A DNA stretch of 49,136 nt from Chiloscyllium plagiosum (lineage: Eukaryota), in NCBI RefSeq assembly GCF_004010195.1, contig NC_057752.1:6507956-6557091 (forward strand). The letters are read 5' to 3'. Both the position numbers and the translations under genes were made by a program. Shown here piece by piece: positions 378 through 38,688 of this stretch. The stretch's first letter is position 1, and each line of letters starts with the position of its first letter. Below the pieces are notes generated by a model. That model did no database searches. It was not told the origin of the DNA and worked only from the letters and a program-made list of their open reading frames with translations.

Positions 378-586
378 TGCAGGTTGCTTCTGGTTTGTTT
401 CTCTTGATGATGGGTTCAGGGATCATTGTCCTCCGACTGTATAGTGCTGTCCAGTTCAATGTGTGATAGTAGCAGAGTAATTTATTGAACGCCACGTACA
501 CCTGTCCAGCACCAATCTCTTTTAACGACTGAAACCCAAGAGATGTCACTTGCTTCAACTTCATGATCATCAGAGACAAACCACGG
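378..586 (-). CDS. ERBB3: ErbB receptor exon 12 (209 nt), end of domain III
   Basis: Acceptor ccttttttgtAG, donor GTaagt. Translates (N)RGLSLMIMKLKQVTSLGFQSLKEIGAGQVYVAFNKLLCYYHTLNWTALYSRRTMIPEPIIKRNKPEATC. LYNRG across the exon 11/12 junction is ERBB3-type (ERBB4: LYSG). Confidence 0.92.
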
Positions 587-879
587 CTACAAAAAAGGCA
601 GTGAGGATCATAGTGAGGGGTCTTGGGACTAATTATAGTGGTACAGTACTTGATTTTGCTCATCCACTTCTATTCCCCACCGTCACCCTCCCATGCAACA
701 TAGGATGACACCTCCAATCAAGAGCTCACTGTGCAGGGACTCTGGAAGCAAAAACTCTTATGTTCCGGTAGATTAATGCAGACTAGTTGATTTGTATATT
801 TGTAGGTATATTCCTATGTGTTACTGTATGACAGCAAGGAACTGACCACAGATCGCTCAATTATGGGTAGGGTAACAGT

Positions 880-1232
880 GAATCATAGAATCCCTACAGC
901 TTGGAAACAGACCCTTCGGCCCCACAAGTCCACGCCAACCCACGAAGAGTATCCCACCAAAACCCATTCCCCAACCCTATCACTCTACATTTACCCCTGA
1001 CTAATGCATCCAACCTATACATCCCTGAAGACTATGGGTAATTTAGCATGGCCAGTTCACCTAACCTGCACACCTTTGAACTGTGGCAGGAAACCAGAGC
1101 ACCCGGAGGAAACCTGCGCAGACACAGGGAGAATGTGCAAACTCCACACAGACAGTTGTCCAAGGCTGGAATTGAACCCAGGTACCTGGCACTGTGAGGC
1201 AGCAGTGCTAACCACTGAGCCACCATGGCTCC
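880..1232 (-). mobile_element. HE1-type tRNA-derived V-SINE, near full length
   Basis: On the minus strand: A box (ggtggctcagtggttagc), B box (gggttcaattcc), V-domain core (gtgtggagtttgcacattctccc...ggtttcc) and a CR1-like 3' tail (gggattctatgatt). Several paralogues in the window. Confidence 0.85.
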
Positions 1233-1234
1233 GG

Positions 1235-1636
1235 GGTTATGTTATTGATAATCCAGAGGCCTGCCTAATGACCCAGAGACATTACAAATCTCAATAGCAG
1301 GCATCTGGGCAATTGATTCAATAGGTCTGCAATAAAAAGCTATTATCAGTAATAGTGACCATGAAACCAATGGATTGTCTCAAAACAAAAAATCTGGTTT
1401 GCTAATATCCTTTTGAGAAGGAAACCAACTATTCATATCCAGTCTGGCTGACAGGAGATTGTATGTAATTAGACCCGACCCATACTAATGTGGTTTGCTT
1501 CTAACTACCCTGTGAAATAGCCTGACAAACATTCAGTTGTATTCAAGAAGGTAACAACTCAACACCACCTTTGGACAATCAGGGATGGAAAATAAATGCC
1601 TGCCTTGTCAGTGACATCTGCATTCCATTCTAAAAG
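1235..1636 (+). mobile_element. Second tRNA-derived SINE family, degenerate
   Basis: Aligns with 44095-44345 (tggattgtctcaaaac...tctggtttgctaat...gaaggaaa...ctggc). Confidence 0.55.
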
Positions 1637-2015
1637 ATCACTCCAAGGCTCTTTTATCATTCCCTCTTCTGAAGGCACTGACTCTCACAGGGGTATATTC
1701 CATATTTAACAATGACTCACCTATAAATGTCCACTCTTCATGTTTAATTTCAGACAGTGTATGTGGGCAGCTGCAGGGGAGGGGGGTTGGAACGTCCTCA
1801 TCACACTTGAGCCCAATCCTATTCTCATCCACAATCCAATGAGGGAGTTACAACAGGAACCACTTGATTCTGATTAGAAATTTTGAGCTGACATTTCACC
1901 AGCCTCTCTCCCTTATCAGGTTAGGATACTGAAGCTACCTGGGCAACCCCTCAATTGTCTGACTGAGATTTGATACCTTCACATCACTAAGCCTCTTTTT
2001 TTTGGAAATTCTTAC

Positions 2016-2106
2016 TTGTAAAGTGTCCTGCCTCCAATAGTAGTTAGATTGGAAAAGACACTAAAATCCGTCATGTTTTGTGGCCAGGACTGAATATTCA
2101 AGTAAC
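2016..2106 (-). CDS. ERBB3: ErbB receptor exon 11 (91 nt), domain III
   Basis: Acceptor ctctctttctAG, donor GTaaga. Translates (G)[29 protein letters not shown](N). Confidence 0.92.
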
Positions 2107-2796
2107 CTAGAAAGAGAGCGAATTCAGGCATGATGTTAGACTACTTCAAATTGACAGACCTTACACTCAAAATATCAGCCTTGCATCATCATTGTGTTTG
2201 ATTTTTTGAGTACATTTCTGTCCAAGATCATTAAAAATAGGACCACAGGAACAGGAATATACAATTCAGCCCACCCAGATACTCCAGAATAGTTTTATTT
2301 TTGTAAATCCTCTCTTGCTGTTTGCATCCTTGGCTGAGGATTCAGCCAGCCTGTACTTCGTTTTCTGCGAATCACCCAATAACTGGAAACAGAAGTGTGC
2401 AAGAGAGGCCCAGGGCCAATTAATTACCCTCCCCTCCACATTTCCCTTAATATCTAGTTTTAGAAGCAGGATGGTGTTTGGCAGCCCTTTGGATCCATGC
2501 CCAGAATGAAGTTTGATATGATCAACACCCTGGCTCAGCCTCTCAGATTGTACCTAATGTTATGCTGTACTGGTATAACCTTGTTCCAAAATCAGGCTGT
2601 ATCTGGAAGGCACACAATGTACTGGCATGAATTTTATATCCATCAGATAATTGAATAAAATCACCAAGCACTGTTTAGAGCACTGGAGTTAAAAAACTTA
2701 TGAACTAGCCCTTAAATCTGTGAACTCAAAAATACATAATGAACCAAACTACTCGACTCCACTTCAGGATTTTTGCCATCTTGTTGAAGTACCCAC

Positions 2797-2870
2797 CTGT
2801 TATCTCTTGAACAGTTTGAAATACCTTCAGTTTTTCTGGATCAAGAGGTGCAATTTTGTGATACAGATCC
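2797..2870 (-). CDS. ERBB3: ErbB receptor exon 10 (74 nt), domain III
   Basis: Acceptor ctggttttAG, donor GTgggt. Translates (G)DLYHKIAPLDPEKLKVFQTVQEIT(G). Confidence 0.92.
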
Positions 2871-3624
2871 CTAAAACCAGCATAAAAGCAGGAATTAAAT
2901 TCATTCTGAAACTAAGACAAGTTCCATCATCTGCAAACCATATGACCCTTGAACCATATAATCCATTAGCAAAACTATTTACAAAATTCTCAAACACTTT
3001 GTACATATTAGAGAACTCGCAATTCGACCGGCACTTTTCTTCAGAATCACAAAGCCAAAAAAAATTCAGAACATTAACATGCAAACAAGATAAAAAGAGG
3101 AAAACAATTTTGTAATCAAATTTAGTCCTTGCTGTGTGTGAATAGGAGTGAAGCCCTGAAATTGAATGTGTTATTATCTCAGTGAGGTTAGAAATAGTTT
3201 TCCAAGATGAAAGGTGACTTAAAGCATGACAGAATTCCCCTCATGGCTCAGCTGAAAATGACCAAACTATTCAGACTATAGGGCCCTGATTTAATCTGAA
3301 CCAGGGAGAAAGTTGGAATGTTACAGTTAGTTTCTGCGCTGTGATGGGGAGGAGTAATAACTGCTGCTGAAAAGTCCAATTTCTGAAGAGGGAGAAATGA
3401 AACATGGGGGTGTTACTGAAAGAGGATTTGATTTGGCGACAAAAGAATATCTATTATCTGTGCCATTCAGCACCTCCCTTCCGCTAGCTAAAAGTGTCAC
3501 ATTATTCCCAGGTCCCTGCAAAAGACAAACTTCAACCAAGTGGTACAAATCCCCACACTGATGTCCATACATTATTTTCCTAGTGGGTGAAATGAATGAG
3601 CAAGAATGAGTTAACATTCCACAA

Positions 3625-3990
3625 AAATAAAACAATGAATTGCAAATGCTGGAGATTTGAAACAAAGACAGAAGATGCTGGAGAAACTCAGCAAATCTGG
3701 CAGAACCTGTGGAAAGAGAAACAGAGTTAATGTTTCGAGTCCAGTGACCCTTCTTCAGACTAAAAGCAGCTGGGAAGTGGTGGTATTTATGCTGATAACA
3801 GGATGGGCTTGGGGTGGAAGGAGTTCGTGAAATAGATAGAGACGGTACTCAGAGTGAAAGCTAAATAGGAGAAGTAGGCAAAGGGATTGCTGATAGTTGG
3901 GAGAGAGGTAAATACAGAGTGGGTACTAACAGGAAGTGTGAATTGTTGAAAATGGGTTGACTGTGCTGGGAGCAGGACAGGACCTGGGGG
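3625..3990 (-). mobile_element. Older Penelope-like element 3' fragment with hammerhead motif
   Basis: Minus strand reads agtCTGAAGAaGGGTCactgGACTCGAAACattaact, then ...ctgctgagtttctccagca...ctccagcatttgca. A pyrimidine-rich tract lies upstream. Boundaries approximate. Confidence 0.6.
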
Positions 3991-4106
3991 ATGGATAACG
4001 AACATCGGCATCTCACAATTTCTTTTCATAGCCATTAGTGTTGTACAGTATTTGCATAATGACAGTTCCTTTTCACCCGTCAGTCTGATTCAGTTTTCTT
4101 CCTTAC

Positions 4107-4227
4107 CCACTGATACCAGTGATGAGAAAGTCAAGATTTCCTGTGATCTTCGTGCAGTTGATAAACTGATCGATGTTGTTTGAATCCACTGTCTGATATC
4201 GACTCCCAGCTCCAGTCCCGGCACAAG
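4107..4227 (-). CDS. ERBB3: ErbB receptor exon 9 (121 nt), start of L domain III
   Basis: Acceptor tttatataaccAG, donor GTaagg. Translates [40 protein letters not shown](G). Length 121 nt and GTGxGSRxQTVD match recalled human ERBB3 (ERBB4 exon 9 is 127 nt). Confidence 0.93.
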
Positions 4228-5187
4228 CTGGTTATATAAAGAAAGCAGAGGACACATCTGAGTAAGTTCTTTCTCTTTCAAAACATTCAGGTCAGAAGAA
4301 CCGAGGTAAAACTTCTGGTCTGTTCGGAATTATTTCATCTCAGCCAAACAGAAACCTGGCAATTTCCTGCCATTAAATACACCAAGATTTACTGTTTGGC
4401 TTCCCACGATGTATTGAAGGGCTGCAAACGTCTGCAGTATCCAAGAGAGAACCATCAAGGGGGGGGGGAGATTGCCAAAACAAGATGGGGAGGGAGTGAA
4501 AACATAAGAAGTCTCACTGGTAACAGAAATATTGTTGAATTTGCAATTATTGTACATTCGTCTTGTGTGAAATGCAACACATAAAATGGATTCTATGAAA
4601 TTCGTGCAGCGGAGCCTCCATGTGCCTGATGGTGGTGCTGTTGGAGAGCAGGAACTGGAAGCTCCACGTCACCACAAACAGATATACACAAGACGGCAAC
4701 GTTGGAAAGTTCCTGCAAGGAAAAAAAATCTGACTTTGTCTGACTTCAACATTTGGTGCAATTCAAATAAACAGAACTAAATTTCCTCAATGCATCATAT
4801 ACACCAATCAAGAGAATTTAGAAATGCTGAGTAACTGCTGGCGTGGTGGTGGGTAGAGGCACAGGCTGGCGAACAGTGCACGTGAGTGGACTTTGGAATC
4901 CCCATGCCATTACTTGAGGCCAAGGGAGTTCCTTTCAACCAGCGTTAGTAATGTCAGCCTTATCAGGCGATTTGTTCAATTGCTGTTTGTGATCCTTAGT
5001 GCCCACAATCAAGTGTTACATTTACCTACATAACAGCAATAACTGCTCTTGAAATGTAATATTTGGGTGGGACTTCCTGGGGCCATGTACTGTTTTAAAT
5101 AGATTTTCTTTCAGGAGTATGTCAGAAGTAGTGAAAGGATTCTGTTCTGCTATTGATGGCTCAGCATCAGTATAAAATTCCTGAGAG

Positions 5188-5500
5188 GGATTCTTGTGAT
5201 GCAGTGGTAGTGTCCTATCTCTGAATCAGGATGCCCCAATTCAAATCCCACCTGTTCTAGAGGTGTTTAATGACACAGAATCATAGGATCCTTACAGTGT
5301 AGCAACTGGCCCTTTGGCCCAACAAGTCCACACCGATCTTCCGAAGAGTAACCCACCCAGACCCATTCCCCCTCCCTATATTTACCCCTGACTAATGCAC
5401 CTAACCTACACATCTCTGAACACTATGGGCAATTTAGCACAGCCAATTCACCTAACCTGCACATGACATCTCTGAATAGGTTGCTTAGAAATATATAAAA
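5188..5500 (+). mobile_element. Short tRNA-derived SINE split by an HE1 3' fragment (5276-5462, minus strand)
   Basis: A-box-like gtgatgcagtggtag and B-box-like ttcaaatccc. The HE1 tail lies between duplicated ATGACA (5270-75 and 5463-68). Related sequence at 43165-43395. Confidence 0.55.
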
Positions 5501-6434
5501 TTCTCACATTGACATGTTCATATATTTGGGGAGGAGACTCTGTTCCAATGAAGGCTCCACACTGAAAGCCTAAACTACATTCTCAGCCATTTCTAGCATT
5601 TTCTACTTTTCTTTCAGATTTCCAGCATTTACAGATTTTTCCTATTTTTCAGTAAACCACAGACTGTTTCTATTCATAAGTGCACATTGTTTAAAATGCA
5701 ACCCAATACTGCTTCCATCAAGAACCACAAATTTGACACAATGAAAAAAAGTTCACTGTCTTGCCACCAATCTCTGGGTAAAGGCCACACTAATGCTAGA
5801 CCCCTGAGGGCTAATTGGTACCAGGATACTTCGGCCTCTATTTCTGTGGCTAGTGGCTTGATGGGACACAGAACTACTGACATGGGGTTGGGGGCAGAAT
5901 CTGGAATTGGGAAATTCAAGGAAGTGAAATTTCTTGCAAATTCACTGTCAATTTTATCAAGTTGCTACGAGGCTAAGCTGCCGATTGTGTGCTGGCAGCA
6001 GCCACATTTACAGAGTAAAGAATGTATACCAAGTGTTAATTATGTGAACAATATAAAATGCATAAGTAAATTAGACAGCTTTATCTAAAAACATCAAATT
6101 GGAGGTTTAAAAAAACTACACTTCTCTCACTTTTTAAAATAGGCCTCTCAATATGAGATCATACCGTAGATACTTAGAACAAGCCAACAAAGATGATCTC
6201 ACTGACTGGTTTTCCAGGTTAATTTCAGCTCCAGGTTCCAATGTGTTTTCAGGCACTGTGGTTTGACAGGCTGGATACAATTCAAGCAACAGAACTCAAA
6301 TTCCAATCAGCCACTAACTGGTACAAACATTTCTATTTACCCCACTAATATTGTAGCTTAAGGGTGTATCTGTTGCCGGGTCACCCTGGTGAGGAAGAAA
6401 GTCTGGCCAATACTGTTCACAATTTGCTGCTCAC

Positions 6435-6548
6435 CTTTCGGACACAGACCATCACACGGCTCGCACATTTTCACGCCATTTTTCTCAACCTCCATCTTGT
6501 CACTTGGACAAGCTCGGACACAAGAACTTTGATCAACAATAAAATTTG
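6435..6548 (-). CDS. ERBB3: ErbB receptor exon 8 (114 nt), end of domain II
   Basis: Acceptor tttatcctgcAG, donor GTgagc. Translates (A)[37 protein letters not shown]. Confidence 0.92.
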
Positions 6549-7412
6549 CTGCAGGATAAAAGACAGAGGAAACCAGTTACATTGCATGAGTACTTGCCTG
6601 AAAGTGCCAGCAATGATTTCCAGTGGTTAAAAAAATTTCACCACAAAGTAGATTGTCCATTGGCATCATTTTTAACTTAGGAGGAGATGGATGATACCAA
6701 AATGGCTAGCCATGATACACAATGCCTGATTTTCCCTCCCAGTGACTTTGGCGAAAAGAGAAATCTAATGCTACATATAATGAGCTAATTCAACATTGAC
6801 AACAATTAAAATTACTCTACGGGTACATAGAATGCTGCAGAGTGTCTCCTGACTGGTGAGGATCAATAGTTGAAGGACAAAGATTTAAGATAAATTGCAG
6901 AAGATTAAAGGGAAAGTGAGGAGAACCATTTATTAAACATAATGCAACTTGCTGTTATGAACTGGAATGCACTGGTGGCAAAGTCACCAAAGACCAAATT
7001 ACCTCCTTCTGCATTGAATAATTCTCTAAAATTTCTGCATGACTCTCCATGTGTTGAATGTCAGCACAACAGAAAGGCAACCCTATTCCATGTGCTTTTT
7101 AAAATGTGCACAGGCTAGTTTACAGGTAGTGGAGGTGGGATCCAAAGTCAGCATCCTGAGCCATACAGAACATGAAATTTCCAGATTCTCCCCACCAGCC
7201 TATTGAGTTAACCAAACCCAGCCTGGAAACAAATTGAGTGCGGAGAGGGACAGGATGTTTTGTTGGGAAGGCAGATCATTACTATACATAGTCCAGTGTT
7301 ACAGACACTGCTGAGCATTGCGTAAGTTCTCCTGATAAACCCATCATTTAAAGAGTGTGAAATGAGAGGGAAACAATTTTCCATCAATAATATAGACATT
7401 AGATGCACTTAC

Positions 7413-7554
7413 CAGGGCAGCTCTTCACACAGAAAGCTCCATACATATACTTGGTATCTGGGTTGCGCTCTAGCTGATAGGATTGCTTGTTGTAAATTAA
7501 TGGTTGTGGACAGACTGGGACACAGGCATTACTGTCATTAAACCGCCTGCATGC
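7413..7554 (-). CDS. ERBB3: ErbB receptor exon 7 (142 nt), domain II with dimerization arm
   Basis: Acceptor ttcccacAG, donor GTaagt. Translates [47 protein letters not shown]; CPQPLxYNK is ERBB3-like. Confidence 0.92.
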
Positions 7555-7803
7555 CTGTGGGAACATAATCGTTATGAAAGAATCAAACTGGCTTGAGGAA
7601 TAACCATTTCATAGTCTGATACTTATGCACACCATTGTTCCTCATTGCTTACACACTTTTGAGCAGTCTCAATCTGTCAGGCTCAAACACACTGTCTTTC
7701 AATTCCAATCACTCACTCCCCATCACTAATACTTACACTGCCTCTCAGACCTTGTTTCATTTCCTTTCTGTTATGTTCAGTCTGGCTGTCAGTCCCATCA
7801 CAG

Positions 7804-7836
7804 CCTGATGAAGGGCTTTTGCCCGAAACGTCGATT
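7804..7836 (+). ncRNA. Minimal type I hammerhead ribozyme motif
   Basis: CTGATGA (7805-11), A, GGGC-TTTT-GCCC, GAAAC, GTC (predicted cut after 7832). The 5' strand of helix I is mostly lost by truncation. Confidence 0.65.
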
Positions 7837-7931
7837 TTACTGCTCCTCAGATGCTGCCTGAACTGCTGTGCTCTTCCAGCACCACTAATCCAGAATCTGG
7901 CTTCCAGCATCTGCAGTCATTGTTTTTACCT
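7804..7931 (+). mobile_element. 128-bp Penelope-like hammerhead-bearing insertion with 13-bp TSD
   Basis: AGTCCCATCACAG duplicated at 7791-7803 and 7932-7944. The insert starts cCTGATGA. Confidence 0.85.
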
Positions 7932-8507
7932 AGTCCCATCACAGTAACTCACTGTCAGCCTCAGTCCCTCAGTTCCCACTGCATTCTCCCACATTCATTC
8001 CAATTGGTCTCCATGGTGGTCTCATCATATAGCTTCTCTCTTTATGCTCATCCCTCTTCTGAGTGCTCACATTATAAATCTCTATTGCACAATCATTCTT
8101 TTTCTCATTCACCTCTCAGTTTGTGTTATTTTTTTCCCAACAGAATGTCTTCTGACCAAAGTTGAGTGTTAGTATCATTCCTGCCAGGCACTCAAATCAA
8201 TCAGACATAGGACAGAATTGTCTGTCAGACAGCACTTCCTGAAGAGGAAGCAGACAAGCCTTTTTGCTTGTTCTTGACTACATCACCACCTCCTAATAAA
8301 ATGGTTCAGGATCAGTTCTCAGTGTTCACTATGCCCGGTACAGTTAGAATTTACACTTCATATGAGGAAAACGGACAGGAGATCCTCAACAGCTCGGAGA
8401 GCTTCTCTAAACATAGAAACAGAGGGGTAATCAATCTGAACCATTAACTCTGTTCTCTCTCCACACCTTTTTCCAGATCTCATTATTTCGGGATGTCTGG
8501 TTTAATT

Positions 8508-8601: not shown

Positions 8602-8660
8602 CCAGCAAATTATACTAGAGTTCACATTTTGTCACCGATTGACTGAAGGAAGATACTTAC

Positions 8661-8782
8661 GAAACAGTCTGTATCTTTTGGCCCTGAACATCCACCGGCA
8701 CATTCACTGTGGCAGCACTCACTGGGGTTGTGTTGTCCAAAGCATCGGCCATTGCACTGAGGAGCACACACTGATTTGGTCA
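8661..8782 (-). CDS. ERBB3: ErbB receptor exon 6 (122 nt), domain II
   Basis: Acceptor ttcttcctcacAG, donor GTaagt. Translates (L)[40 protein letters not shown]. Not in the ORF track; read by hand. Confidence 0.92.
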
Positions 8783-8860
8783 CTGTGAGGAAGAAAAGAA
8801 AGTAGTAAACAGAAAAGAGTATGTTTTGTGGTCTTGACAGTTGGAAGTGTCAAATTTAAG

Positions 8861-10610: not shown

Positions 10611-10676
10611 AGGTCTGACAGTCATCTTCACCAGGGCCCCAGCAATATCCATTACAAGATGCATGACACTTGGCAC
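10611..10676 (-). CDS. ERBB3: ErbB receptor exon 5 (66 nt), furin-like Cys-rich domain II
   Basis: Acceptor tttttttcAG, donor GTgagt. Translates (C)AKCHASCNGYCWGPGEDDCQT(L). Confidence 0.92.
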
Positions 10677-12943: not shown

Positions 12944-13048
12944 AAAAATGGCCATTTAGGTAGAGTATTGGAAGCCATAATGCATATAAAAGCCAAAAAT
13001 GGCCATTTAGGTAGAGTATTGGAAGCCATAATGCATATAAAAGCCAAA
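12944..13048. repeat. Perfect 51-bp tandem duplication
   Basis: aaaaatggccatttaggtagagtattggaagccataatgcatataaaagcc at 12944-12994 and 12995-13045, followed by aaa. Confidence 0.95.
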
Positions 13049-13269: not shown

Positions 13270-13404
13270 AGCCTTTTACGGAATCCTTTGTCTCGTTGAA
13301 GTCCAACCTCTCCTTTGGGTTGTGAAGAATGTCAGCCCAGTTGATGGCCTGTGTGTGACACAGGAAATTGTTGCTTTCCAAATACACACCTCCCAGCAGA
13401 ATCT
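13270..13404 (-). CDS. ERBB3: ErbB receptor exon 4 (135 nt), end of domain I
   Basis: Acceptor ttttgtggtgtAG, donor GTaagt. Translates EILLGGVYLESNNFLCHTQAINWADILHNPKERLDFNETKDSVKG(C). Phase 1/1. Confidence 0.9.
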
Positions 13405-14361: not shown

Positions 14362-14656
14362 TACCATATAATAACCTCTCTCTTTGACCAAGGTTTTTGT
14401 TAAATCAATCCCCTATCTCCTTATATGGCTCAGTTCCAACCAAACACCTTTGCGATATTTTACTATGTTAAATATGCTATATAAATGCAAGTCGCTATTG
14501 TTGAATGGAGTAATTTTATATAAGATGATGGTTCTGAAAGAGAGTTAATGTTGAAGTTATAATGCCTCCACTCAGTCTGATGATGGCACACTTACTTTGA
14601 GTGGCAAAACAGTTGGTCTTGCACAAGGTCCTGTTGGAGACAGACATGGCATACTA

Positions 14657-15604
14657 AAGTCAAGGAGATGTACAGCACGGAAACAGACCCTTCAGTCCAA
14701 CTCATCCATGCTGACCAGATATCCTAACCTATTTAGTCTCATTTGCCAGCACTTGCCCCATATCCCTCTAAACCCTTCCTATTCATATACCCATCCAAAT
14801 GCCTTTTAAATGTTGCAATTGTACCAGCCTCCACCACTTCCTCTGGCAGCTCATTCCATACACGTACCATCCTCTGCGTGAAAAGGTTGCCCCTTAGGTC
14901 TCTTTTATATCTTTCCCTTCTCACCCTAAACCTATGCCCTCTAGTTCTGGACTCCCCAAACCCAGGGAAAAGAGTCTCTCTATTTATCCTATCCATGCCC
15001 CTCATAATTTTGTAAACCTCTATAAAGTCACCCCTCAGCATCCGACGCTCCAGGGAAAACAGCCCCAGCCTGTTCAGCCTCTCCCTGTAGCTCAAATCCT
15101 CTAACCCTGGCAACATCCTTGTAAATCTTTTCTGAACCCTTTCAAGTTTCACAACATCTTTCCTATAGGAAGGAGACCAGAATTGCACGCAATATTCCAA
15201 CAGTGGCCAAACCAATGTCCTGTACAGCCACAACATGACCTCCAAACTCCTGTACTCAATACTCTGACCAATAAAAGAAAGCATACCAAACGCCTTTGTC
15301 ACTATCCTATCTACCTGCGATTCCACTTTCAAGGAGCTATGAACCTGCACTCCCAAGTGTATAAGTCCTGCTAAGATTTGCTTTCCCAAAATGCAGCACC
15401 GAGGGCCCAGCACCAATCGTTGTGGCACTCCACTGGTCACAGGCCTCCAGTCTGAAAAACAACGCTCCACCACCACCCTCTGTCTTCTACCTTTGAGCCA
15501 GTTCTGTATCCAAATGGCTAGTTCTCCCTTTATTCCGTGAGATCTAACCTTGCTAACCAGTGTCCCATGGGGAACCTTGTTGAACGCCTTACTGAAGTCC
15601 ATAT
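14657..15604 (-). mobile_element. CR1 LINE, 5' truncated, with internal deletions
   Basis: ORF 14739..15653 has DFSKAFNKVPH, SGVPQ and LEYCVQFWSP motifs. Near-identical to 47514-48669 but lacks the YINDL/FADD block. Confidence 0.9.
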
Positions 15605-23182: not shown

Positions 23183-23369
23183 CTGTTAGCTGTTTAAATC
23201 CAAGCTGTTTCAACCCATGAACTCCATCCTTCCGATAATTGAGAATGACCGAGAGTGCATACTTGTCATCATACAGCTTTGTGCCACGTATAATTCGTAG
23301 GTTTTCTAAAGGAAGATACTCAAACTGATTGAGAGCCACTAGAACGTATCCAGTCACCTCCCGGATCGA
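23183..23369 (-). CDS. ERBB3: ErbB receptor exon 3 (187 nt), domain I
   Basis: Acceptor cacAG at 23370-71, donor GTagga. Translates [62 protein letters not shown]. 187 nt as in ERBB3/ERBB4. Confidence 0.9.
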
Positions 23370-27594: not shown

Positions 27595-28320
27595 GCCTTC
27601 CAGGACAGATACAGCATGGATTACAGAGTAAAACTCTCTCTACTGTTTTAAGACTGAAAGTAAAGCTTCCTCAACACTGTCCCCATGAAACATTCCAAAT
27701 TCAGGGACAATACAGGGTCAAATACAGAGTAAAACTCATTCTACTCTGTCGAACTAAACGTAAATTGAAAATAAAATGCTCTTGACATCATCCCTATCAA
27801 ACACTTCCAGGACAAGGACAGCATGGGGTTGGATCCAGATTAAATCTCTTTTAAACTGAAAGTAATCTCCCTCAACATTGTGCTGTCCCTGTCCTGGGAG
27901 TGTTTCATGGGGACAATTTCAAGGAAGATTTACTTTCAGATTACTTTCAGTTTAAAAGAGCAGAGAGAGGTTTAATCTGTATCTAACCCTGTGCTGTCCC
28001 TGTCCTGAGAGTGTTTGATGGGGACAATGTAAGATACAGAATAAAACTCCCTCTGCACTGTCCTAATCGCACACTCCCAGGACAGGGATAGCACAGGGTT
28101 AGATACAGAGTAAAGCTCTCTCTGCACTGTCCCCAAACATTCCCAAGACAGGGACAGCACAGGGTCAGATACAGAGTAAAACTCCCACTACAATGTCCCC
28201 ATCAAACACTCTCAGGACAGGGACAGTACAGGGTTAGATACAGAATAATACTCCCTCTACAATGTCCCCATTAAAACTATCTGAGGCAGCTACAACACAG
28301 GGTTAAATAAAGAGTAAAGC
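27595..28320. repeat. Approximately 69-bp minisatellite with an inverted internal block
   Basis: Unit gatacagagtaaa-ctccctct-cactgtccccatcaaacactcccaggacagggacagcacagggtta recurs at 28033, 28102, 28168 and 28237; about 27878-28031 is in reverse orientation. Confidence 0.88.
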
Positions 28321-30766: not shown

Positions 30767-30829
30767 TGTGTGAGTGTGTGTGTGAGTGTGTGAGTGTGTG
30801 AGTGTGTGTGAGAGAGAGAGAGAGAGAGA
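30767..30829. repeat. Compound (TG)n/(AG)n microsatellite
   Basis: Direct read. Confidence 0.95.
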
Positions 30830-31104
30830 AAAGTTGTGGTGGGGGATCTGGTTAATATTTGCACAGGCGTTAGACTAGCGTTTTAAAATGTCTAATTTTT
30901 CGTGGGTAATATTAGCAGAAGCTGAATGCTCCAAATTTTCTAACATTAAGGGTTTTTCTCCCCAAAGATTCATGAGAATTACCAATCAGAACCTTAAATT
31001 TCAAGGCAATTCCCAAGATGCCTGCTGTGTCTGGATTCTGCAGGGTCCTGATGCGCAACTCCAGTCTGCACTGCTCAGTGATTATCTGGCCATTAGAATA
31101 TCCA

Positions 31105-31262
31105 GCAGGAGGCTGGAAGAACACAGCAAGCCAGTCCTAGAGAACGGTTTATTCACAAAACGTCAACTCCTCCACCTCCTGGTGCCACCTAAGTTGCTGT
31201 GTTCTTCCAGCTTCCTGCCTGTCTACTTTGGATTCCAGCATCTTTAGTTTTTTTTCGTCTCT
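31105..31262. mobile_element. Degenerate fold-back Penelope-like fragment
   Basis: gcaggaggctggaagaacacagcaa is inverted against ttgctgtgttcttccagcttcctgc; ends ttccagcatct. Confidence 0.65.
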
Positions 31263-31271
31263 ATTGGAATA

Positions 31272-31423
31272 CAGAACAACCTCAGTTATCCAAACATCAA
31301 TTATCCAAATTTCGGATAATGCGAAAAAGATCTCAAGGTCCTGTAAAAAATGTTATCCGAACTCGTAGATATCCGAACAAAATACTCCCTGCCCGTCTCG
31401 TTTGAATAATTGAGGTTGATCTG
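31272..31423. mobile_element. Tigger/pogo-like MITE, 152 bp
   Basis: TA flanks; termini CAGAACAACCTCAGTTATCCAAAC and GTTTGAATAATTGAGGTTGATCTG (21/24 inverted match). Confidence 0.82.
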
Positions 31424-31839
31424 TATCCAGGACAGGGAAAATAGTCCTAAGAAATTCTTTCACAGAATAGAAGGAATTTTGTCATTTATTTTACAAAACA
31501 GTGGATGTAAAGTACATGGAATGAAGATCATGCAGACAGAAATCACGTAATTAATAAAAAGAAGAGAATTCTCACCTGAGAGTTTAACAATTTGGGATAT
31601 TCTGTCTGCAAGTGGAACAAATTAGGGAACCTTGCCCAGGATCTGGTTGGAACAAGAGGTATTTTGGATTTCTAGGAGCAGCAGTGACATTGCAATAATG
31701 TATGTACTTCAAAATTATTTCATTGGCTATAAAGTGCTTTGGAAATTTTCAATAGAAACATCTATTAAATAAATAAAGTGCTTTGGAACATGCTGAGGTC
31801 ATGAAATGCACAATATAAATGTAAGCCTTTCTTTAGACG

Positions 31840-32150
31840 GTATAAGGCTTTCAGACAAGATTTTAAACAAAGGTCTCACCTATTTGCTTTGGTGGACATG
31901 AACGATCCCAGGGTACGATTATTAAAAAGAGCAAACGAGTTTTCCTTTGTGTCCAGGTTAAGATTTGTCCCTCAACCAACATCACTAAAATAGATGATGA
32001 TCTGATCAATATCATATTGCTGTTTGTGGGAGTTTGCTGTGCACAGCTTGGCTTCTGCATTTTCTACATTGCAACCTTAAGTGTACTTCTCAAGTACTTT
32101 ATTGGATGTAAAGTGCTTTAAGACATCCACTGGCTCTGAATACTTTCTCT
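31840..32150 (+). mobile_element. Deu-core SINE
   Basis: ccctcaaccaacatcactaaaa...ttgctgtttgtgggagtttgctgtgcaca...aagtactttattggatgtaaagtgcttt. Confidence 0.7.
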
Positions 32151-33295
32151 CTGTCTTTTTGCTGGCTTTGTAAATGCTCCTCCTAGCAAAGCACTAAGTC
32201 ACACAGATCAAGAGTGTGGAGTGAGCTGTTCTCAGCATGGGCAATTGTTAGAAGCTATAAATTACCTCTTTAGCCCTCATGGAAAGAAATAATTATTGAG
32301 CAACAGCTCTTTCTCTTGTAATCCCCACTGGAAAACGAACGTGTGCGGATGCTGGGTGAATAAAGGATAGGGCAGGTGTGATCCTATCCATAACCAAATA
32401 GTCTGCTGCCATACAGTGTCTGGGCTAACCCATTAGGAACAGCCATAAAGATCTGCAGAGTCAGGAAGCATTCACAAGTCAGCAGCAGCCGCTGATTCTG
32501 GATTAACCGAGATCATGCTCACTACGAATTCTGAGTAAAGATTGACAGCTGCAGAGAAGCCTGTTGTGGCTGGATAGCCTCTATACTGTGCATATTGACT
32601 TCACACATGCTGACCTTGAAGTCCTCTCAGTCCAGCTGGTGTGATGTAAAGTTTAAAAATAGGGAACGTTTGCCTTGACTAAATAAATGCATGTTTTAAA
32701 AAAAAAGTGTAATTGGATCTCGCTCCTCTGCAGCATCCCCGTTCCCACTCCAAAACCCACCCTCAAATCTTCCACTCTTCTCTCAAGGACTGCCTGGGGT
32801 TTTCCAATTCTGTGCTTGTCAGCATTTATTTTAAGAGATGGACTATCATGGGCTGGCGAACACAGACAGGAGCAGATTACCCTGGGCACTGACTAATCCA
32901 GCAGCCCTGAGGTGCCCACTCTAACTACTCTACCACAAGGGCCACTTGTGAAAATTGTGTTACTCAACCCACAGAACAGTACAGCAGCAGGAGGAATCAC
33001 TGTCCTCAGAATGAAGACATCATAACCCACTCAACGATTAAGCACAAAATGACCGACTGAAAGCAGGCTCACTGTGTGATGAGAAATGCTGCTCTCATTT
33101 GACTCAATCTAATAATGTTTATTTGACAAAATGGGTTCATCCTTTTTGCATAAGGTGCAAGAGCCACAAAATCCTCAGAAAGAACTTGTTTATAGTCGGT
33201 CAGTAGACAGAAAAAAACATCCAGTCAAGACTGGATAGAAATCAATGTACTGTTGCCAAGAAATATAGAAGCCTCATCAGTTAAGATTAAAGAAA

Positions 33296-35020
33296 TGAAT
33301 TGAATTGAATTGAATTTATTGTCACGTGTACCAAGGCACAGTGAAAAGCTTTGTCTTGCAAGCAATACAGGCAGATCACAGAGTTAAGTAGCATAGATAG
33401 TAAATAATAGGTAAGCAGTAGCAAAAACAAAAACATAGGTACAGGTGAATGTTAAGAGTTTGTGAGTCCATTCAGTATTCTAACAACAATAGGGTAGAAA
33501 CTGTTTTGAAACTGGCTGGTGCATGTGTTCAGGGTTCTGTACCTTCTCCCTGATGGTAGAGGTTGTAGGAAAACATTGCCAGGGTGGGATGGATCTTTGA
33601 GAATGCTGGCGGCCTTTCCTTGACAGTGGGCCTGGTAGGTGGATTCTATAGATGGGAGGTTGGCCTTTGTGATTGTCTGGGCTGAGTTCACCACTCTCTG
33701 TAACAGTCTCCGATCTTGAATGGTACAGTTGCCATACCAGGTAGTGATACATCCAGACAGAATGCTCTCGATGGCGCACCTATAAAAGTTGGCAAGGGTA
33801 TTCGCTGCCATGCCAAATGTCCTCAGCTGTTTGAGGAAGAAGAGACGTTGTTGGGCCTTTGTAAGCAGTGTATCCACATGAAGAGCTGAAAATGTGTTGC
33901 TGGAAAAGCGCAGCAGGTCAGGCAGCATCCAAGGAACAGGCGAATCGACGTTTCGGGCATAAGCCCTTCTTCAACTCCTCTCCTGTTCCTTGGATGCTGC
34001 CTGACCTGCTGCGCTTTTCCAGCAACACATTTTCAGCTCTGATCTCCAGCATCTGCAGTCCTCACTTTCTCCTGTCCACATGAAGAGTCCAAGAAAGTTT
34101 GTTGTGGATGGCCACACCCAGGAGCTTGACACTCCACTCGTTCCATTCTGTGCTGTTAATGTGTGGGAGGGGGCATGAGTAACATCCCACCGAAAGTCAA
34201 TAACGAGTTCCTTGGTTCTTCTGGCATTGAGAGCTAGGTTGTTCTCAGTGTACCATTTTTCCAGGTCTTCCACCTCCCATCTGTAGTCTGTTTCGTCGCC
34301 ATCTGAGATTCAACCGACTATGGTGGTGGTGTCATCAGCAAATTCGTAAATGGCATTAGTCTGGTATTTGGCGACGCAGTCATGGGTATACAGTGAGTAC
34401 AGTAAGGGGCTGAGTACGCACCCCTGGGGGACTCTAGTGTTGAGTGTTAATGAGGATGAAATATTGTGCCCAGTCTTCACTGATTGTGGCCTGTGGGTCA
34501 GGAAACTGAGGATCCAGTTACAGAGAGTGGGGCGTGGTCCGAGATCACTAAGATTAGTAATCAGCCTCAAGGGGATAATAGTGTTGAAGGCTGAACTGCA
34601 GTCAATGAGTAGGATTCTTATGTAGCTGTTCATGGTGTCAAGATGTTCTAGGGAGGAGTGAAGAGCAACTGATTTGGCATCTGACATGGATCTGTTGGTC
34701 CAATAGGCAAATTGGAGTGGGTCAAGAGTAGTGGGGAGGCTGGAATTGATTAATGCCATGACCAGCCTTTCAAAGCACTTCATGACCACTGAAGTTAGGG
34801 CCTCTGAAAAGTAGTCATTCAGACAAGCTGCATGAGCTTTCTTAGGCACAGGGATGATGTTGACCCTCTTGAAACAGGCAGGGACAGTGGCCTGCTGCAG
34901 GGAGAGGTTGAAGATGTCCGAGAAGACCTCTGTCAGTTGATCTGAGCATGCTCTGAGTGCACGGCCTGGTACTCCGTCTGGTCCCATCGCTTTCCTTGGA
35001 TTCACATGAAGGAAAACTGA
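33296..35020 (-). mobile_element. Rex1/Babar LINE, 5' truncated, RT domain present
   Basis: KAMGPDGV, ALTSVVMKCFERLV, LDPLQFAY, SAFNTI, VPQGCVLSPLLYSLYTHD, FADD; (CAATT)n tail; interrupted at 33886-34072. Confidence 0.92.
33886..34072. mobile_element. Fold-back Penelope-like insertion nested in Rex1
   Basis: TSD T(A/G)TCCACATGAAGAG at 33871-85 and 34073-87; same subfamily as 8861-9069. Confidence 0.9.
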
Positions 35021-35216
35021 TGGGAAGTGAAGTAAAAACTTGGCCTATAAATTCAGCTGTGCAAAGCAGAGTTGCAGGAACCATGCTGAATACAACCATG
35101 TTGCAGCCAGCATTACCCATTGGGATGGGTTGATAGTGGTGCAGGAAATTAGCTTCACTGAGACGTCTTAAAGACAGCCATTACCCCTTACAGTAAGGAG
35201 CACACTGTAAAATACG

Positions 35217-36752
35217 TAGAGTCATAGAGTCACAGAAATGTACAGCATGGAAACAGACTCTTTGTCCCAACTCTTACATGCCAACCAGATATCCTACATT
35301 AATCAAATCCCATTTGCCATCGCTTGGCCCATATCCGTTGAAACCCTTCCCATTCATATACCCATCCAGGTGTATCTTAAATGTTATCATTGTACCAACC
35401 TACACCACTTCCTCTGTGGACAGACAGGAGGCTGGAAGAACACAGTAAGCCAGGCAGCATCAGGTGGTGAAGAAGTCGACATTTCGGGTGTAACACCTCC
35501 ACCACTTCCTCTGGCAGCTCATTCCAGACACACATCACCCTCTGTGTGAAAACGTTTCCCCTCAGGTCCCTTTTAAATCTTTCCCCTCTGACCCTAAACC
35601 TTTGCCCTCTAGTTCCGGACTCCTCCATCCCAGGGAAAAGACTTTGTCTGTTTACCCTATCCATGCCCTTTATGATTTTATATACTGCCATAAGGTCACC
35701 CCTCAGCCTCTAAAGCTCCAGGCTCCAGGGAAAACAGCCCCAGCCTATTCAGCCGCTTCCTATACCTCAAATCCTCCAACCCTGGCAACATCCTTGTAAA
35801 TCTTTTCTGAACCCTTTCAAATTACACAACCCTTCCTATAGGAAGGAGACCAGAATTGCACCAATATTCCAAAAGTGGCCTAACCAATGTCCTGTGCAGC
35901 CGCAACATGACCTCCCAACTCCTGTACTCAATACTCTGACCAATAAAGGAAAGCATACCAAATGCCTTCTTCATTATCCTATCTACCTGCCACTCCACTT
36001 TCAAGGAGCTATGAACCTGCACTCCAAGGTCTCTTTGTTCAGCAACACTCCCCAGGACCTTACAATTAAGTGTATAAGTCCTGCTCTGATTTGCCTTTCC
36101 AAAATGCAGCACCTCGCATTTATCTAAATTAAACTCCATCTGCCACTCCTCGGCCCATTGTCCCATATGATCGATATCCCATTGTACTCTGAAGTAATCT
36201 TCTTCATTGTCCACTACACCTCCAATTTTGGTGTCATCTGCAAACTTACCAGCCATACCTCCTATGTTCACATCCAAATCATTTATATAAATGACAAAAA
36301 GTAGTGGACCCAGCACTGATCCTTGTGGCACACCATTGGTCACAGGCCTCCAGTTTGAAAGGCAACCCTCCACCACCACCCTCTAGCTTCTACCTTCGAG
36401 CCAGTTCTGTATCCAAATGGCTAGTTCTCTCTATTCCATGTGATCTAACCTTGCTAACCAGTCTACCTTGAGGAATCTTGTCAAACACCTTACTGAAGTC
36501 CATACAGATCATGTCCACTGCTCTGCCCTCATCAGTCCTCTTTGTTACTTCTTCAAAAAACTCAATCAAGTTTGTGAGACATGATTTCCCATGCACAAAG
36601 CCATGTCGACTATACCCTAATCAGTCCTTGCCTATTCAAATACATGTAAATCCGATCCCTCAGGATTGTCTCCAACAACTTGCCCACCACCGATGTCAGG
36701 CTCACTGGTCTATAAGTCCCTGGCTTTTCCTTACCACCTTTCTTAAATAGTG
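35217..36752 (-). mobile_element. CR1 LINE, 5' truncated
   Basis: ORFs 36390..36596 and 35822..36379 (GKSCLTNL, DFSK, GVPQGSVLGP, YINDLD, KFADD); (gactctat) tail. Confidence 0.92.
35417..35494 (-). mobile_element. 78-bp Penelope-like fragment nested in CR1 with 19-bp TSD
   Basis: ACCT(A/C)CACCACTTCCTCTG at 35398-416 and 35495-513; insert matches the 31105 subfamily. Confidence 0.8.
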
Positions 36753-37138
36753 TCATGAAGTGAATTGTCCAAACTACAAGGGACTAGTCAAAATTGTTGA
36801 AGGAGCAGTGCTTGTGATGTCCTTAGAAACGTTTATTGACTGGAGACATTTAACTGTAGCTATTGTACATATAAATATAGGGAGAGTGCAAAGAGAGCAG
36901 GAGTTTCAGATATCTTGGGGTTTTATTCAACCTTTATTTTTCCTCAGTGACTTGCTGGGGTTAGGTTTCATATATGCTGGTAAACCTCTGGTACCTAACC
37001 TCTTTCGAAGGCAATCATTGCTTTATCTGATCTTGGATGGAGTTTCAGGGAACTGTTTGACTGTGGAGGTTATGTTTTGGAGGTTGGGACAAGTGGAGAG
37101 CATGGAGAATGGGGTCATTGTTCAATAACCTGTGTGTT

Positions 37139-37337
37139 TTAGATTAGATTAGATTACATTACAGTGTGGAAACAGGCCCTTCAGCCCAACAAGTCCACAC
37201 CGACCCGCCGAAGCGCAACCCACCCATACCCCTACATTTACCCCTTACTTAACACTACGGGCAATTTAGCATGGCCAATTCACCTGACCTGCACATCTTT
37301 GGACTGTGGGAGGAAACCGGAGCACCCGGAGGAAACC
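37139..37337 (-). mobile_element. HE1-type V-SINE 3' half, cut by the gap
   Basis: V-core and tail with (TAATC)n end; CpGs retained, so probably young. Confidence 0.85.
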
Positions 37338-37376
37338 NNNNNNNNNNNNNNNNNNNNNNNNNNNNNNNNNNNNNNN
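37338..37376. other. Assembly gap (39 N)
   Basis: Direct read. Confidence 0.99.
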
Positions 37377-37470
37377 CCTGAAGAAGGGCCTGTGCCCGAA
37401 ACGTCGAATCTCCTGTTCCCTGGATGCTGCCTGACCTGCTGTGCTGTTCCAGCAATAAGGTTTCAACTGT
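37377..37470 (+). mobile_element. Penelope-like fragment with intact hammerhead core
   Basis: cCTGAAGA-A-GGGC-CTGT-GCCC-GAAAC-GTC-GAAT at 37377-37409. Confidence 0.8.
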
Positions 37471-38536
37471 TTTCCTCAACCTTGTTCAAGGGTAGAAAAC
37501 TAATTTCAGTGACCATTGTACAGCAAAGTGTTTCATATCCTAGTTCAACCATTTTTATGGCCTTGCCGACACTATGATTGTCCTGCCTCTGACAGTCAGA
37601 CTGGAGCCTAAATCATCTGAATTCAAATTCTGATCAGCTTGACCGATTTACTTTCAGAATAGTGTTACTTAACCAAGAGACTTCTCAAGCCTGGGTTACT
37701 CCAGTGGCATGTTGGTAGGACTTGCTGGTATACTTAGAACAGAATCTTCCCATTCACAGAATTTACCACATCTTTCCATTCTGCTTTTCAGGATCAAAGC
37801 CATTGAGCTGAGAATCCTCGACACAAGTGGGAATTGAAAAAGGTAAGAGACCAACATTCAACAGATCTTTGATACAAATAATGAGTGTTAATCACAACCA
37901 TTAAGCCCGAATATACACAACAATGTTGTGTTGGTGAAAGGACCTGAATTGTGAAATCAAGAAAAAGATCATCAACAATCATCATATTTTCTGAGACAAT
38001 GAACACTTGTGAATATGAACCAAAATTAATTAAGGCCAATAAACGTTAAATAGAAATTACTATTTCTTAGATTGTGAACAAATTGCATTTATATAATATA
38101 GCATCTTTAATATAGAAAACATCCCAAGCATTTCAGAACATCATCAATAAAACTTTGACATCAAGCCACATTAGGATATATTTGGACACATGATCTAAAT
38201 CTCGATCCAAGAGGTAGGTTTTAAGGGACATCTTAAAAGGAAGAGAGGGGCATCATGGATTTTTCAAAGCTTGGGTCCTGGGCAGCTGAATGTAAGACCA
38301 CCAATGGTGGACCAATTAAAGTCAGGAATGCTAAAAAACAACTGGAATAGTCAAGTACAGATATGCCAGAGGGTTGTAAGAGGTTCTAGAGATAGGAAAG
38401 AAGTGAATCTAAGGAGGTACTTGAAAGTAAGAATGAGGATTTTAAATGATAAATGCACACAGAACATGTTACAAGTCAACTATGCAAAATGCCTGTGTTA
38501 TTCTGCCGTTTACAGAGAATGGCTTTTTGTCCCTAC

Positions 38537-38688
38537 CCTCAGGAATGTGAGGTTGCGGTTAGCATCGATGTTTGTGATCTCCAAGTTGCCCATCACAATC
38601 TCACAGTTCGTGTACATCTTCTGGAGTTGCTGGTACTGCTGCTCGAGGCCAGATAGTGAACTCAATTTATTTTCTGTGCCAGCACACA
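38537..38688 (-). CDS. ERBB3: ErbB receptor exon 2 (152 nt), start of receptor L domain I; ERBB3 by whole-gene assignment, though this exon is ERBB4-like
   Basis: Acceptor ttttttcAG at 38689-90, donor GTaggg at 38535-36. Translates [51 protein letters not shown]. 152 nt, phase 1/0, as in ErbB exon 2. Confidence 0.9.

Follow-up and report, generated by a model that had tools for sequence, protein, structure and literature searches.

An ERBB3 gene of Chiloscyllium plagiosum whose ERBB4-like start of domain I is most likely retained ancestral sequence

Is an ErbB receptor that begins like ERBB4 and continues like ERBB3 a chimera, or an ERBB3 that has kept the sequence of the ERBB3/4 ancestor? 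This question is raised by a 49,136-nucleotide stretch of the genome of the shark Chiloscyllium plagiosum (here, the window), in which a sequence-only reading had described an ERBB4-like domain I on an ERBB3-like domain II/III. HER3, a target of cancer drugs, is marked by a dead kinase, by its selectivity for neuregulins and by a PI3K-rich tail. When ErbB3 lost its kinase activity is asked in the portion of Stein and Staros 2006 consulted here (PMC1618406).

The 11 exons in the window lie on the minus strand, sum to 1413 nt and are all bounded by canonical AG/GT splice sites. Spliced together, they read through 470 codons in one frame with no stop, as had been claimed from the sequence. They are listed below under what we take to be the usual ErbB exon numbers.

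38537..38688, minus strand: exon 2, 152 nt; domain I begins here, and its first strand (residues 5-16) is ERBB4-like and holds the Lys equivalent to HER4 K35
23183..23369, minus strand: exon 3, 187 nt; part of domain I, ERBB4-like in its first half and with ERBB3-type residues 86, 91, 101, 108 and 110 in its second
13270..13404, minus strand: exon 4, 135 nt; end of domain I, equal in length to exon 4 of ERBB4 in the same genome, sequence not ERBB4-like
10611..10676, minus strand: exon 5, 66 nt; start of cysteine-rich domain II
8661..8782, minus strand: exon 6, 122 nt; domain II, one codon more than the 119 nt of the three paralogues
7413..7554, minus strand: exon 7, 142 nt; dimerisation arm, with ERBB3-type Lys at EGFR position 248 and ancestral Ala at EGFR position 265
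6435..6548, minus strand: exon 8, 114 nt; end of domain II
4107..4227, minus strand: exon 9, 121 nt; start of domain III, with a two-codon deletion as in bony-vertebrate ERBB3
2797..2870, minus strand: exon 10, 74 nt; domain III, with the Asp equivalent to HER4 D376 and, at EGFR position 357, a Tyr of ERBB4 type
2016..2106, minus strand: exon 11, 91 nt; domain III
378..586, minus strand: exon 12, 209 nt; end of domain III, with the Lys equivalent to HER4 K438
Same contig (C43), positions 6505705-6467316, outside the window: exons 13-28; domain IV, membrane helix, pseudokinase and tail

The extra codon of exon 6 is common to four other elasmobranchs and is not found in the chimaera. Exon 9 measures 127 nt in the three other ErbB genes of this genome. 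The junction of exons 3 and 4 was checked in reads, one contig of sequencing run X1 joining them exactly; the remaining junctions rest on splice signals and orthologues. Reads of run X19 were mostly repeat-derived here, and run X20 had none. Exon 1 was not found when ATG-to-GT candidates were scored against five orthologous signal peptides in the first 110 kb, nor over 230 kb upstream (7,001 bases of which are N), where the best of 76 candidates scored 2.6. Rfam gave no matches in the window.

Exon 2 shares 38 of 50 residues with human ERBB4, a count made by eye on the alignment, and 26 of 50 with gibbon ERBB3; the sequence-only reading had given about 39/51 for ERBB4 and about 27/51 for ERBB3. 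In database searches with this exon the top ERBB4 matches scored 69.5 to 70.5 bits, and ERBB3 about 40. Across exons 2-3, identity was 0.76 to 0.79 to all 14 ERBB4 sequences, compared with 0.54 to 0.68 to bony-vertebrate ERBB3, of which 15 sequences span these exons (coelacanth ERBB3 lacks them and falls outside the comparison); residues 1-80 are about 0.78 to 0.88 identical to ERBB4. In 40-residue windows, the excess of ERBB4 identity was 0.20 to 0.21 at starts 1, 41 and 61, fell to 0.08 at start 21 and to 0.06 at start 81, and was gone from residue 101. On these alignments the ERBB4-likeness is genuine and is limited to about residues 1-80, that is, exon 2 and half of exon 3. The description of exons 3 and 4 as ERBB4-type thus holds for the first half of exon 3; exon 4, which matches ERBB4 at 13-21 of 42-43 residues and bony ERBB3 at 13-19 of 40-43, is ERBB4-like in length only.

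The ERBB3 signatures that had been read in exons 6-12 fared unevenly. The 121-nt length of exon 9 was confirmed and reflects the two-codon deletion that bony ERBB3 also has. Overall identity is marginal, at 0.63 to 0.72 to ERBB3 versus 0.64 to 0.69 to 13 of 14 ERBB4 sequences (0.61 for one gapped entry). The motif HKI is shared with gibbon ERBB3 and is a weak signature, because gar, sturgeon, lungfish and turtle ERBB3 lack it. ERBB4-type residues are scattered beyond domain I as well: A260, Y349 and N561, like N39 within it, separate the shark protein from bony ERBB3, as does the first strand (E5, K7, L11, S12). The start G-T-E-N-K/R and N39 are also shared with the ERBB4-like receptors of lamprey and hagfish.

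The sequence-only reading had held that the lack of a separate ERBB4 in the genome would overturn the ERBB3 call. A search with exon 3 found four ErbB loci, among them an ERBB4 on contig C7 with an HRD loop, the alpha-C Glu and introns of 100-140 kb. Its introns 2 and 3 span 99,514 and 140,579 nt, compared with 15,167 and 9,778 nt in the gene studied here, which is indeed compact, as had been noted, and lies on another contig among other neighbours. Human ERBB3 is, we assume, flanked by PA2G4 and RPS26. Both flank the shark gene as well, bearing out the neighbourhood proposed for an ERBB3: a PA2G4 exon lies ~51 kb downstream, and RPS26 (two exons, intron-containing) lies ~281 kb upstream of exon 2 on the opposite strand. 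An Ikaros-family gene lies between these neighbours. LANCL, presumably the neighbour of ERBB4, was represented by LANC-like genes on contigs C7 and C5, with none on C43.

The kinase exons, which had been singled out for inspection, carry dead-kinase motifs at the level of sequence. Exon 21 encodes HRN in the catalytic loop, as do all five other chondrichthyan species sampled, and the alpha-C Glu is replaced by Asp in all six. Bony ERBB3 also has lost this Glu but differs in what replaced it: Gln in lungfish and caecilian, Pro in coelacanth and His in most others. The Gly-rich loop, beta3 Lys and DFG are intact, as in bony ERBB3. Unlike ERBB4, the shark protein lacks both the catalytic Asp and the alpha-C Glu, and the leucines of the segment before the kinase, which we take to be the receiver surface, are replaced. 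In cyclostomes, by contrast, HRD was present in seven of seven proteins with a readable loop (eight checked), and the alpha-C Glu is intact. The loop residue does not by itself define activity, since HRD occurs in 4 of 100 readable bony ERBB3 loops (some turtles and rodents). That ERBB3/HER3 has HRN in place of HRD is stated in the portion of PMC13259870 consulted.

None of the traits of an ERBB4 orthologue (HRD, alpha-C Glu, grouping with ERBB4, giant introns, LANCL neighbour) is present in this gene. It is the one ERBB3 of chondrichthyans; its catalytic loop reads HRN and its tail ends in the ERBB3 manner. We consider it very probable that its ERBB4-like exons 2-3 are ancestral ERBB3/4 sequence, retained in sharks while bony-vertebrate ERBB3 changed rapidly there. 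Trees, the polarity of sites, kinase motifs and synteny support both the ERBB3 call of the sequence-only reading and its suggestion of a slow-evolving gene with ancestral states.

In phylogenetic analysis, shark ERBB3 clustered with bony ERBB3 in trees of exons 2-3, 6-8, 9-12, 13-15 and the kinase. Support was 95 (UFBoot) for exons 2-3, with 43 taxa and agreement among five models, and 100 for exons 2-4; alternative topologies were rejected for exons 6-8 and the kinase. The tree of exons 4-5 was unresolved and placed shark ERBB3 with cyclostomes; in that of exons 2-3, one lamprey protein branched as sister to ERBB3 and ERBB4 together. Two entries without domain I, coelacanth ERBB3 and one from lamprey, were excluded where that domain was used; a crinoid was left out of the AU tests, and a 421-residue entry labelled Lampetra planeri (P0089) was excluded as teleost ERBB4-like by eye.

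Ten sites in exons 2-3 have the shark ERBB3 residue in ERBB4 and not in bony ERBB3, and nine of these states also occur in outgroups, by a lenient criterion under which one outgroup sequence suffices. Branch lengths from the split to the tips were 0.22 for shark and 0.70 for bony ERBB3 in exons 2-3, 0.32 and 0.40 in exons 6-8, and 0.58 and 0.61 in exons 9-12. Relative-rate tests gave p<0.05 in four of five comparisons for exons 2-3 and in none of five for exons 6-12. By these estimates, exons 2-3 evolved about three times faster in bony ERBB3 than in the shark.

The sequence-only reading had offered gene conversion or chimerism as the alternative. We found no positive support for it over exons 2-3, where AU tests do not reject the conversion topologies (p 0.086, 0.28 and 0.086). 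The power of these tests is limited, since one conversion topology is also not rejected in exons 9-12 (p 0.24). For residues 1-80, orthology is ahead by just 0.85 log-likelihood units.

The form of conversion that survives best, though we regard it as improbable, is a short and very old transfer from ERBB4 to ERBB3 on the chondrichthyan stem, covering the first ligand-contact strand (at most ~18 codons at the start of exon 2). Residues 1-18 contain six of the ten ERBB4-shared sites and none of the ERBB3-shared ones, and for this segment alone an ERBB4 grouping is best by 6.7 log-likelihood units; however, the segment was picked post hoc and orthology is not rejected in it (p-AU 0.23). Ser10 and Gln16 were not seen in the three cyclostome outgroups, Gln16 occurring among outgroups in the two invertebrates only, but E5, K7, L11, S12 and E15 are present in cyclostomes. 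Residue 10 (Ser in shark ERBB3, Ser/Thr in ERBB4, Val in bony ERBB3, Leu in cyclostomes) fits both histories, and at this site shark ERBB4 itself has Thr. Rewriting of the strand on the bony stem gives the same pattern, and lungfish ERBB3 retains intermediate states (E5, R7).

Replacement of exons 2-3 entire, or of domain I, by ERBB4 sequence in chondrichthyans would make a true chimeric receptor, and we judge this highly unlikely. The higher identity of exons 2-3 to ERBB4 and the AU values are compatible with it, but the maximum-likelihood tree is orthologous, and when shark ERBB3 was constrained to join ERBB4 the uniting branch had zero length. The observed log-likelihood gap of 7.3 was reached in 0 of 60 simulations under the constrained tree and in 37 of 60 under orthology. 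Nine interleaved sites within exons 2-3 match bony ERBB3 and not ERBB4, and five of the nine are derived. Only two of ten states fixed in shark ERBB4 occur in shark ERBB3, both also in outgroups or bony ERBB3. Four-fold synonymous identity to the shark's own ERBB4 is not raised in exons 2-3 (14/35, compared with 11/31 in exons 6-8 and 23/57 in exons 9-13), and between the two exons lie 15 kb of intron here and 99.5 kb in ERBB4. Whole-domain conversion was rejected on the orthologous tree, the interleaved ERBB3 residues and synonymous sites that are no closer to ERBB4.

That the gene might be an assembly chimera, or else an additional paralogue of ERBB4 type, is scarcely credible. Three elasmobranch orthologues are named 'erbB-4-like' in the database and the best matches of exons 2 and 3 outside sharks are ERBB4, but the kinase tree rejects all alternatives (p-AU below 2e-7), tail matches after the six shark, ray and chimaera entries are ERBB3-named proteins, the stingray orthologue is named erbB-3a, PA2G4 and RPS26 flank the gene, five other species have the same protein, a read contig joins exons 3 and 4, and the search with exon 3 gave just four loci, with no other HRN-type ErbB among them. 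Several shark ERBB3 genes bear the 'erbB-4-like' label and are easily mistaken for ERBB4.

The tail bears on the order of events. All six chondrichthyan tails (sharks, rays, chimaera) have two YxxM and two NPxY, the extra one being NPEY, whereas 98 of 103 complete bony tails have four to six YxxM and all 103 have one NPxY; the bony trait of about six YxxM PI3K-docking motifs is thus absent in the shark. Three cyclostome tails had zero or one YxxM. The shark tail is also shorter, at 269-277 residues versus 353-494 in 12 bony tails measured whole. It ends in NPDYW, as in bony ERBB3, and is collinear in alignment with the ERBB4 tail, including its distal part, but stops after NPDYW. The short tail is likely an ancestral leftover, although it could be a chondrichthyan loss. 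From its two YxxM and two NPxY motifs, the prediction is weaker PI3K recruitment than by human HER3.

What is new here is that chondrichthyan ERBB3 combines dead-kinase motifs with only two YxxM. This combination suggests that the kinase was lost before the PI3K sites multiplied and the ligand strand was remodelled. The catalytic Asp and alpha-C Glu would have been lost on the ERBB3 stem, before the split of cartilaginous and bony fish; on the bony-vertebrate stem, the first ligand-contact strand would then have been rewritten, the alpha-C region changed further and YxxM multiplied to four to six. Shark ERBB3 thus likely records the order in which human HER3 acquired its special features, with catalytic-motif loss placed on the jawed-vertebrate stem and timed apart from PI3K-site expansion and ligand-strand rewriting.

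ERBB3/HER3 receptors are characterised by binding to neuregulins alone, by slight or absent kinase activity and by an obligate dependence on heterodimers. By analogy with human HER3, a ligand, most likely neuregulin, would bind between domains I and III and the domain II-IV tether would open. The receptor would then heterodimerise with ERBB2, EGFR or ERBB4, its pseudokinase acting as allosteric activator while the partner phosphorylates the ERBB3 tail. The portion of PMC10948148 consulted names K35, E112, D376 and K438 as the HER4 residues that salt-bridge NRG1beta; they map to K, D, D and K in shark ERBB3. The N138 glycosylation Asn and the dimer residues D218 and R232 of HER4 are missing. 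As described, the retained Lys makes contact with neuregulin and not with betacellulin. An ancestral ERBB3/4 pocket would imply an ERBB4-like broad ligand range, and we raise as a doubtful possibility that cartilaginous fishes carry a living HER3 intermediate: already a pseudokinase, with the ancestral pocket and a putative range of betacellulin, HB-EGF and epiregulin plus neuregulins. If so, bony vertebrates would have invented both the selectivity for neuregulins alone and the six-site PI3K amplifier, and these inventions could be traced to some ten residues of the pocket. The shark receptor is a natural reagent for asking which pocket residues confine HER3 to neuregulins.

Rates were also compared in the kinase, with a frog EGFR entry truncated there excluded from the test. 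The split-to-tip values were 0.57 for shark and 0.85 for bony ERBB3, and p was 0.010 or lower in five of five relative-rate comparisons. The rate asymmetry of exons 2-3 recurs in this region, where orthology is beyond doubt.

The sequence-only reading described 11 exons of an ErbB gene splicing into one frame, with an ERBB4-like domain I on an ERBB3-like domain II/III. The motifs that it named lie on the minus strand, and the exons were recovered in a single frame of 1413 nt (470 codons without a stop) in which every end is AG/GT. The junction check in reads covered exons 3 and 4; these are directly joined in one 2,045-nt contig of sequencing run X1 (its kind guessed as RNA), and the listed contig of run X15 reads on into the intron at this junction. 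Exons 13 to 28 were found downstream of the window; with them the frame, taken from exon 2 onward, runs through 1,228 codons before it meets a stop. The features are as follows (G000, this species' genome; C43, the contig carrying the window).

Window 38688 to 378, minus strand: ERBB3 exons 2 to 12
Window 28032-28318: intronic tandem repeat, 69-nt unit, 4.2 copies
Window 14568-15593: intron 3 repeat of very high copy number (run X15 depth in the millions), probably a LINE fragment
Window 12944-13048: exact 51-nt intronic duplication
G000:C43:6499051-6498980, minus strand: exon 16
G000:C43:6492107-6491972, minus strand: exon 17
G000:C43:6472592-6467316, minus strand: exons 25 to 28, the tail

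A search of the genome with exon 3 returned four loci, the window and sites on contigs C7, C33, and C5, which were mapped to ERBB4 (C7), an ERBB2-type gene (C33), and an EGFR-type gene (C5). The C7 gene has HRD, the alpha-C Glu, an intron 2 of 99.5 kb, and an intron 3 of 140.6 kb. Its kinase exon 20 is missing from C7 and is found instead on a small contig that is unplaced (locus L028, G000:C80433:743-967), which is an assembly gap in ERBB4. Neighboring genes were compared with the human ERBB3 and ERBB4 arrangements. PA2G4 and RPS26, proposed as markers of ERBB3 synteny, were both found near the gene on C43 (a PA2G4 exon ~51 kb downstream and a two-exon RPS26 match ~281 kb upstream); an Ikaros-family gene lies ~203-207 kb upstream, and LANC-like genes are on C7 and C5. 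When the tail was used as the query, six chondrichthyan entries came top; the others among the best 120 of 139 matches were bony-vertebrate proteins, called ERBB3 wherever their name specifies a paralogue, except for one hamster entry labelled 'kinase 2'. We conclude that the gene is a real, intact ERBB3 orthologue. Its full architecture recurs in the orthologues of catshark, basking shark, two rays, and chimaera, so the gene is neither an assembly error nor species specific.

The Ikaros-family gene and RPS26 (G000:C43:6749219-6827601) are encoded on the other strand from ERBB3 and PA2G4, which suggests a local inversion relative to the human order. An intronless full-length RPS26 match without stops (G000:C10:39825059-39825367) is probably a retrocopy, and further, decayed copies occur on C30, C6, and C24. 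PMC9120683 and PMC4898815 report four ErbB genes in cartilaginous fish.

Exon 2 is indeed closer to ERBB4 (human ERBB4 chains, 69.5-70.5 bits; EGFR, ~47; ERBB3, ~40), and exons 2-3 are 0.76-0.79 identical to ERBB4 (14/14 sequences) and 0.54-0.68 identical to bony ERBB3 (15 sequences). The likeness is narrower than first described, being limited to approximately residues 1-80 (residue 1 being the first Cys of exon 2); the exon 4 sequence is not ERBB4-like.

Trees were built with lamprey, hagfish, hemichordate, and crinoid receptors as outgroups and with ERBB4 of shark, ray, and chimaera as candidate conversion donors. In the exons 2-3 tree (43 taxa), shark ERBB3 grouped with bony ERBB3 (UFBoot 95; 100 for exons 2-4) and shark ERBB4 with bony ERBB4; the exons 4-5 tree was unresolved. 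Orthology was best in every region by AU tests, which rejected 3/3 alternatives in exons 6-8 and in the kinase and 2/3 in exons 9-12. Five substitution models gave the same ranking for exons 2-3. Shark ERBB3 shares 10 positions there with ERBB4 but not bony ERBB3, 9 of which have the same state in at least one outgroup; at 9 others it shares bony ERBB3 states that ERBB4 lacks, and 5 of these (I30, N45, H101, F108, and Q110) are derived. States fixed in shark ERBB4 occur in shark ERBB3 at 2/10 positions, both also seen in outgroups or bony ERBB3. Four-fold synonymous sites match the ERBB4 of the same genome at 14/35 for exons 2-3, 3/10 for exons 4-5, 11/31 for exons 6-8, and 23/57 for exons 9-13; since this identity is not raised in exons 2-3, there has been no recent conversion. 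(P0089, a protein entry labelled Lampetra planeri, resembles teleost ERBB4 by eye and is possibly contamination.)

In exons 2-3 the length from the ERBB3/4 split to the tips was 0.22 in shark ERBB3, against 0.70 in bony ERBB3 and 0.12-0.14 in ERBB4. Shark and bony ERBB3 were alike in exons 6-8 (0.32 versus 0.40) and 9-12 (0.58 versus 0.61) and diverged again in the kinase (0.57 versus 0.85). Relative-rate tests with a lamprey outgroup gave p<0.05 in 4/5 comparisons for exons 2-3, 5/5 for the kinase, and 0/5 for exons 6-12. Further ERBB4-type residues are A260, Y349, and N561, at positions given in PMC1618406 as dimer, ligand, and tether contacts. The mosaic is therefore only apparent, a patchwork of bony-vertebrate acceleration over a conservative shark protein. 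Trees, site polarity, and rates thus agree on one of the two origins first proposed, a slow-evolving chondrichthyan ERBB3 with ancestral states, and we regard ancestral retention as very probably the explanation of the ERBB4-like exons 2-3. The other, chimerism or gene conversion over these exons, is unlikely and gains no positive support from trees, site states, or synonymous sites. Speaking against orthology, residues 1-18 favor grouping with ERBB4 by 6.7 units but do not reject it, residues 1-80 give it a lead of just 0.85 units, and residues 46-85 carry no signal; on this evidence a micro-conversion of the first strand only is a possibility, though an improbable one. Whole-exon transfer from ERBB4 to ERBB3 in the chondrichthyan lineage is highly improbable, for although AU rejected 0/3 alternatives in exons 2-3 (p 0.086, 0.28, and 0.086), the tree there is orthologous, the branch uniting shark ERBB3 with ERBB4 has length zero, and the observed gap was reached by 0/60 simulations on the shark ERBB3-plus-ERBB4 tree versus 37/60 on the orthologous tree (28 taxa), in a kind of parametric test that tends to be liberal.

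According to PMC10948148, HER4 K35, E112, D376, and K438 form salt bridges with NRG1beta, betacellulin having a counterpart for D376 only; these residues map to K7, D84, D347, and K410 in shark ERBB3. Position 7 is Lys/Arg in 6/6 chondrichthyans, and among the 89 readable of 114 bony entries it is Lys in none and Arg in one (lungfish). Judged from these residues, the shark pocket is more ERBB4-like than that of human HER3, and a broader ligand range is possible, with the best-documented retained contact (K7) concerning neuregulin, not betacellulin.

The shark kinase has HRN, and Asp takes the place of the alpha-C Glu; its Gly-rich loop, beta3 Lys, and DFG are all intact. Human HER3 has HRN and a His at alpha-C (PMC13259870). 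Of 8 cyclostome entries checked, 7 have a loop that can be read, and each of these has HRD. Among the 100 bony ERBB3 entries whose loop is readable, 4 have HRD as well, as apparent independent reversions in rodents and a turtle cluster; one HRG and one HRY were also seen, and isolated odd cases may stem from errors in the sequence. The odd-loop proteins are P0128 (sea turtle), P0191, P0197, and P0221 (rodents), P0169 (alligator), and P0205 (sloth).

YxxM motifs bind PI3K p85, and NPxY motifs bind PTB adaptors, e.g., Shc. The shark tail has two YxxM and an extra NPEY; all 6 of the chondrichthyan tails carry two YxxM plus two NPxY and are collinear with the distal ERBB4 tail. Of the 103 bony tails that are complete (the set includes isoforms of the same gene), 98 carry 4-6 YxxM, and a single NPxY is present in every one. 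The HER3 tail recruits PI3K (PMC13259870). In the simplest order, the kinase would have been inactivated on the jawed-vertebrate ERBB3 stem, and tail amplification and pocket remodelling would have followed on the bony stem; alternatively, chondrichthyans would have lost tail motifs rather than kept an ancestral short tail. What makes the gene valuable is this stepwise history of HER3, together with a ligand-range question that can be tested, rather than any chimera.

The available text of PMC1618406 asks when ErbB3 lost kinase activity and does not contain the word 'shark'; PMC8615588, PMC12614167, and PMC11245391 provided background only. None of the titles and abstracts searched deals with what characterizes chondrichthyan ERBB3 in its domain I, kinase, or tail (most subscription papers fall outside this scope, and earlier mention is possible). 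Liu 2013 (Genomics) and Wu 2021 (Pharmacogenomics), known from reference lists, reportedly address ErbB evolution.

Exon 16 is a long juxtamembrane exon like that of ERBB4's long form, and coelacanth ERBB3 is similar; database entries for rays and chimaera show the segment shortened or absent, a hint that it may be alternatively spliced, as happens in ERBB4. Exon 17 encodes a Gln within the membrane helix at a position that is Leu in catshark, basking shark, rays, and chimaera; the difference could reflect species variation or an error in the base call.
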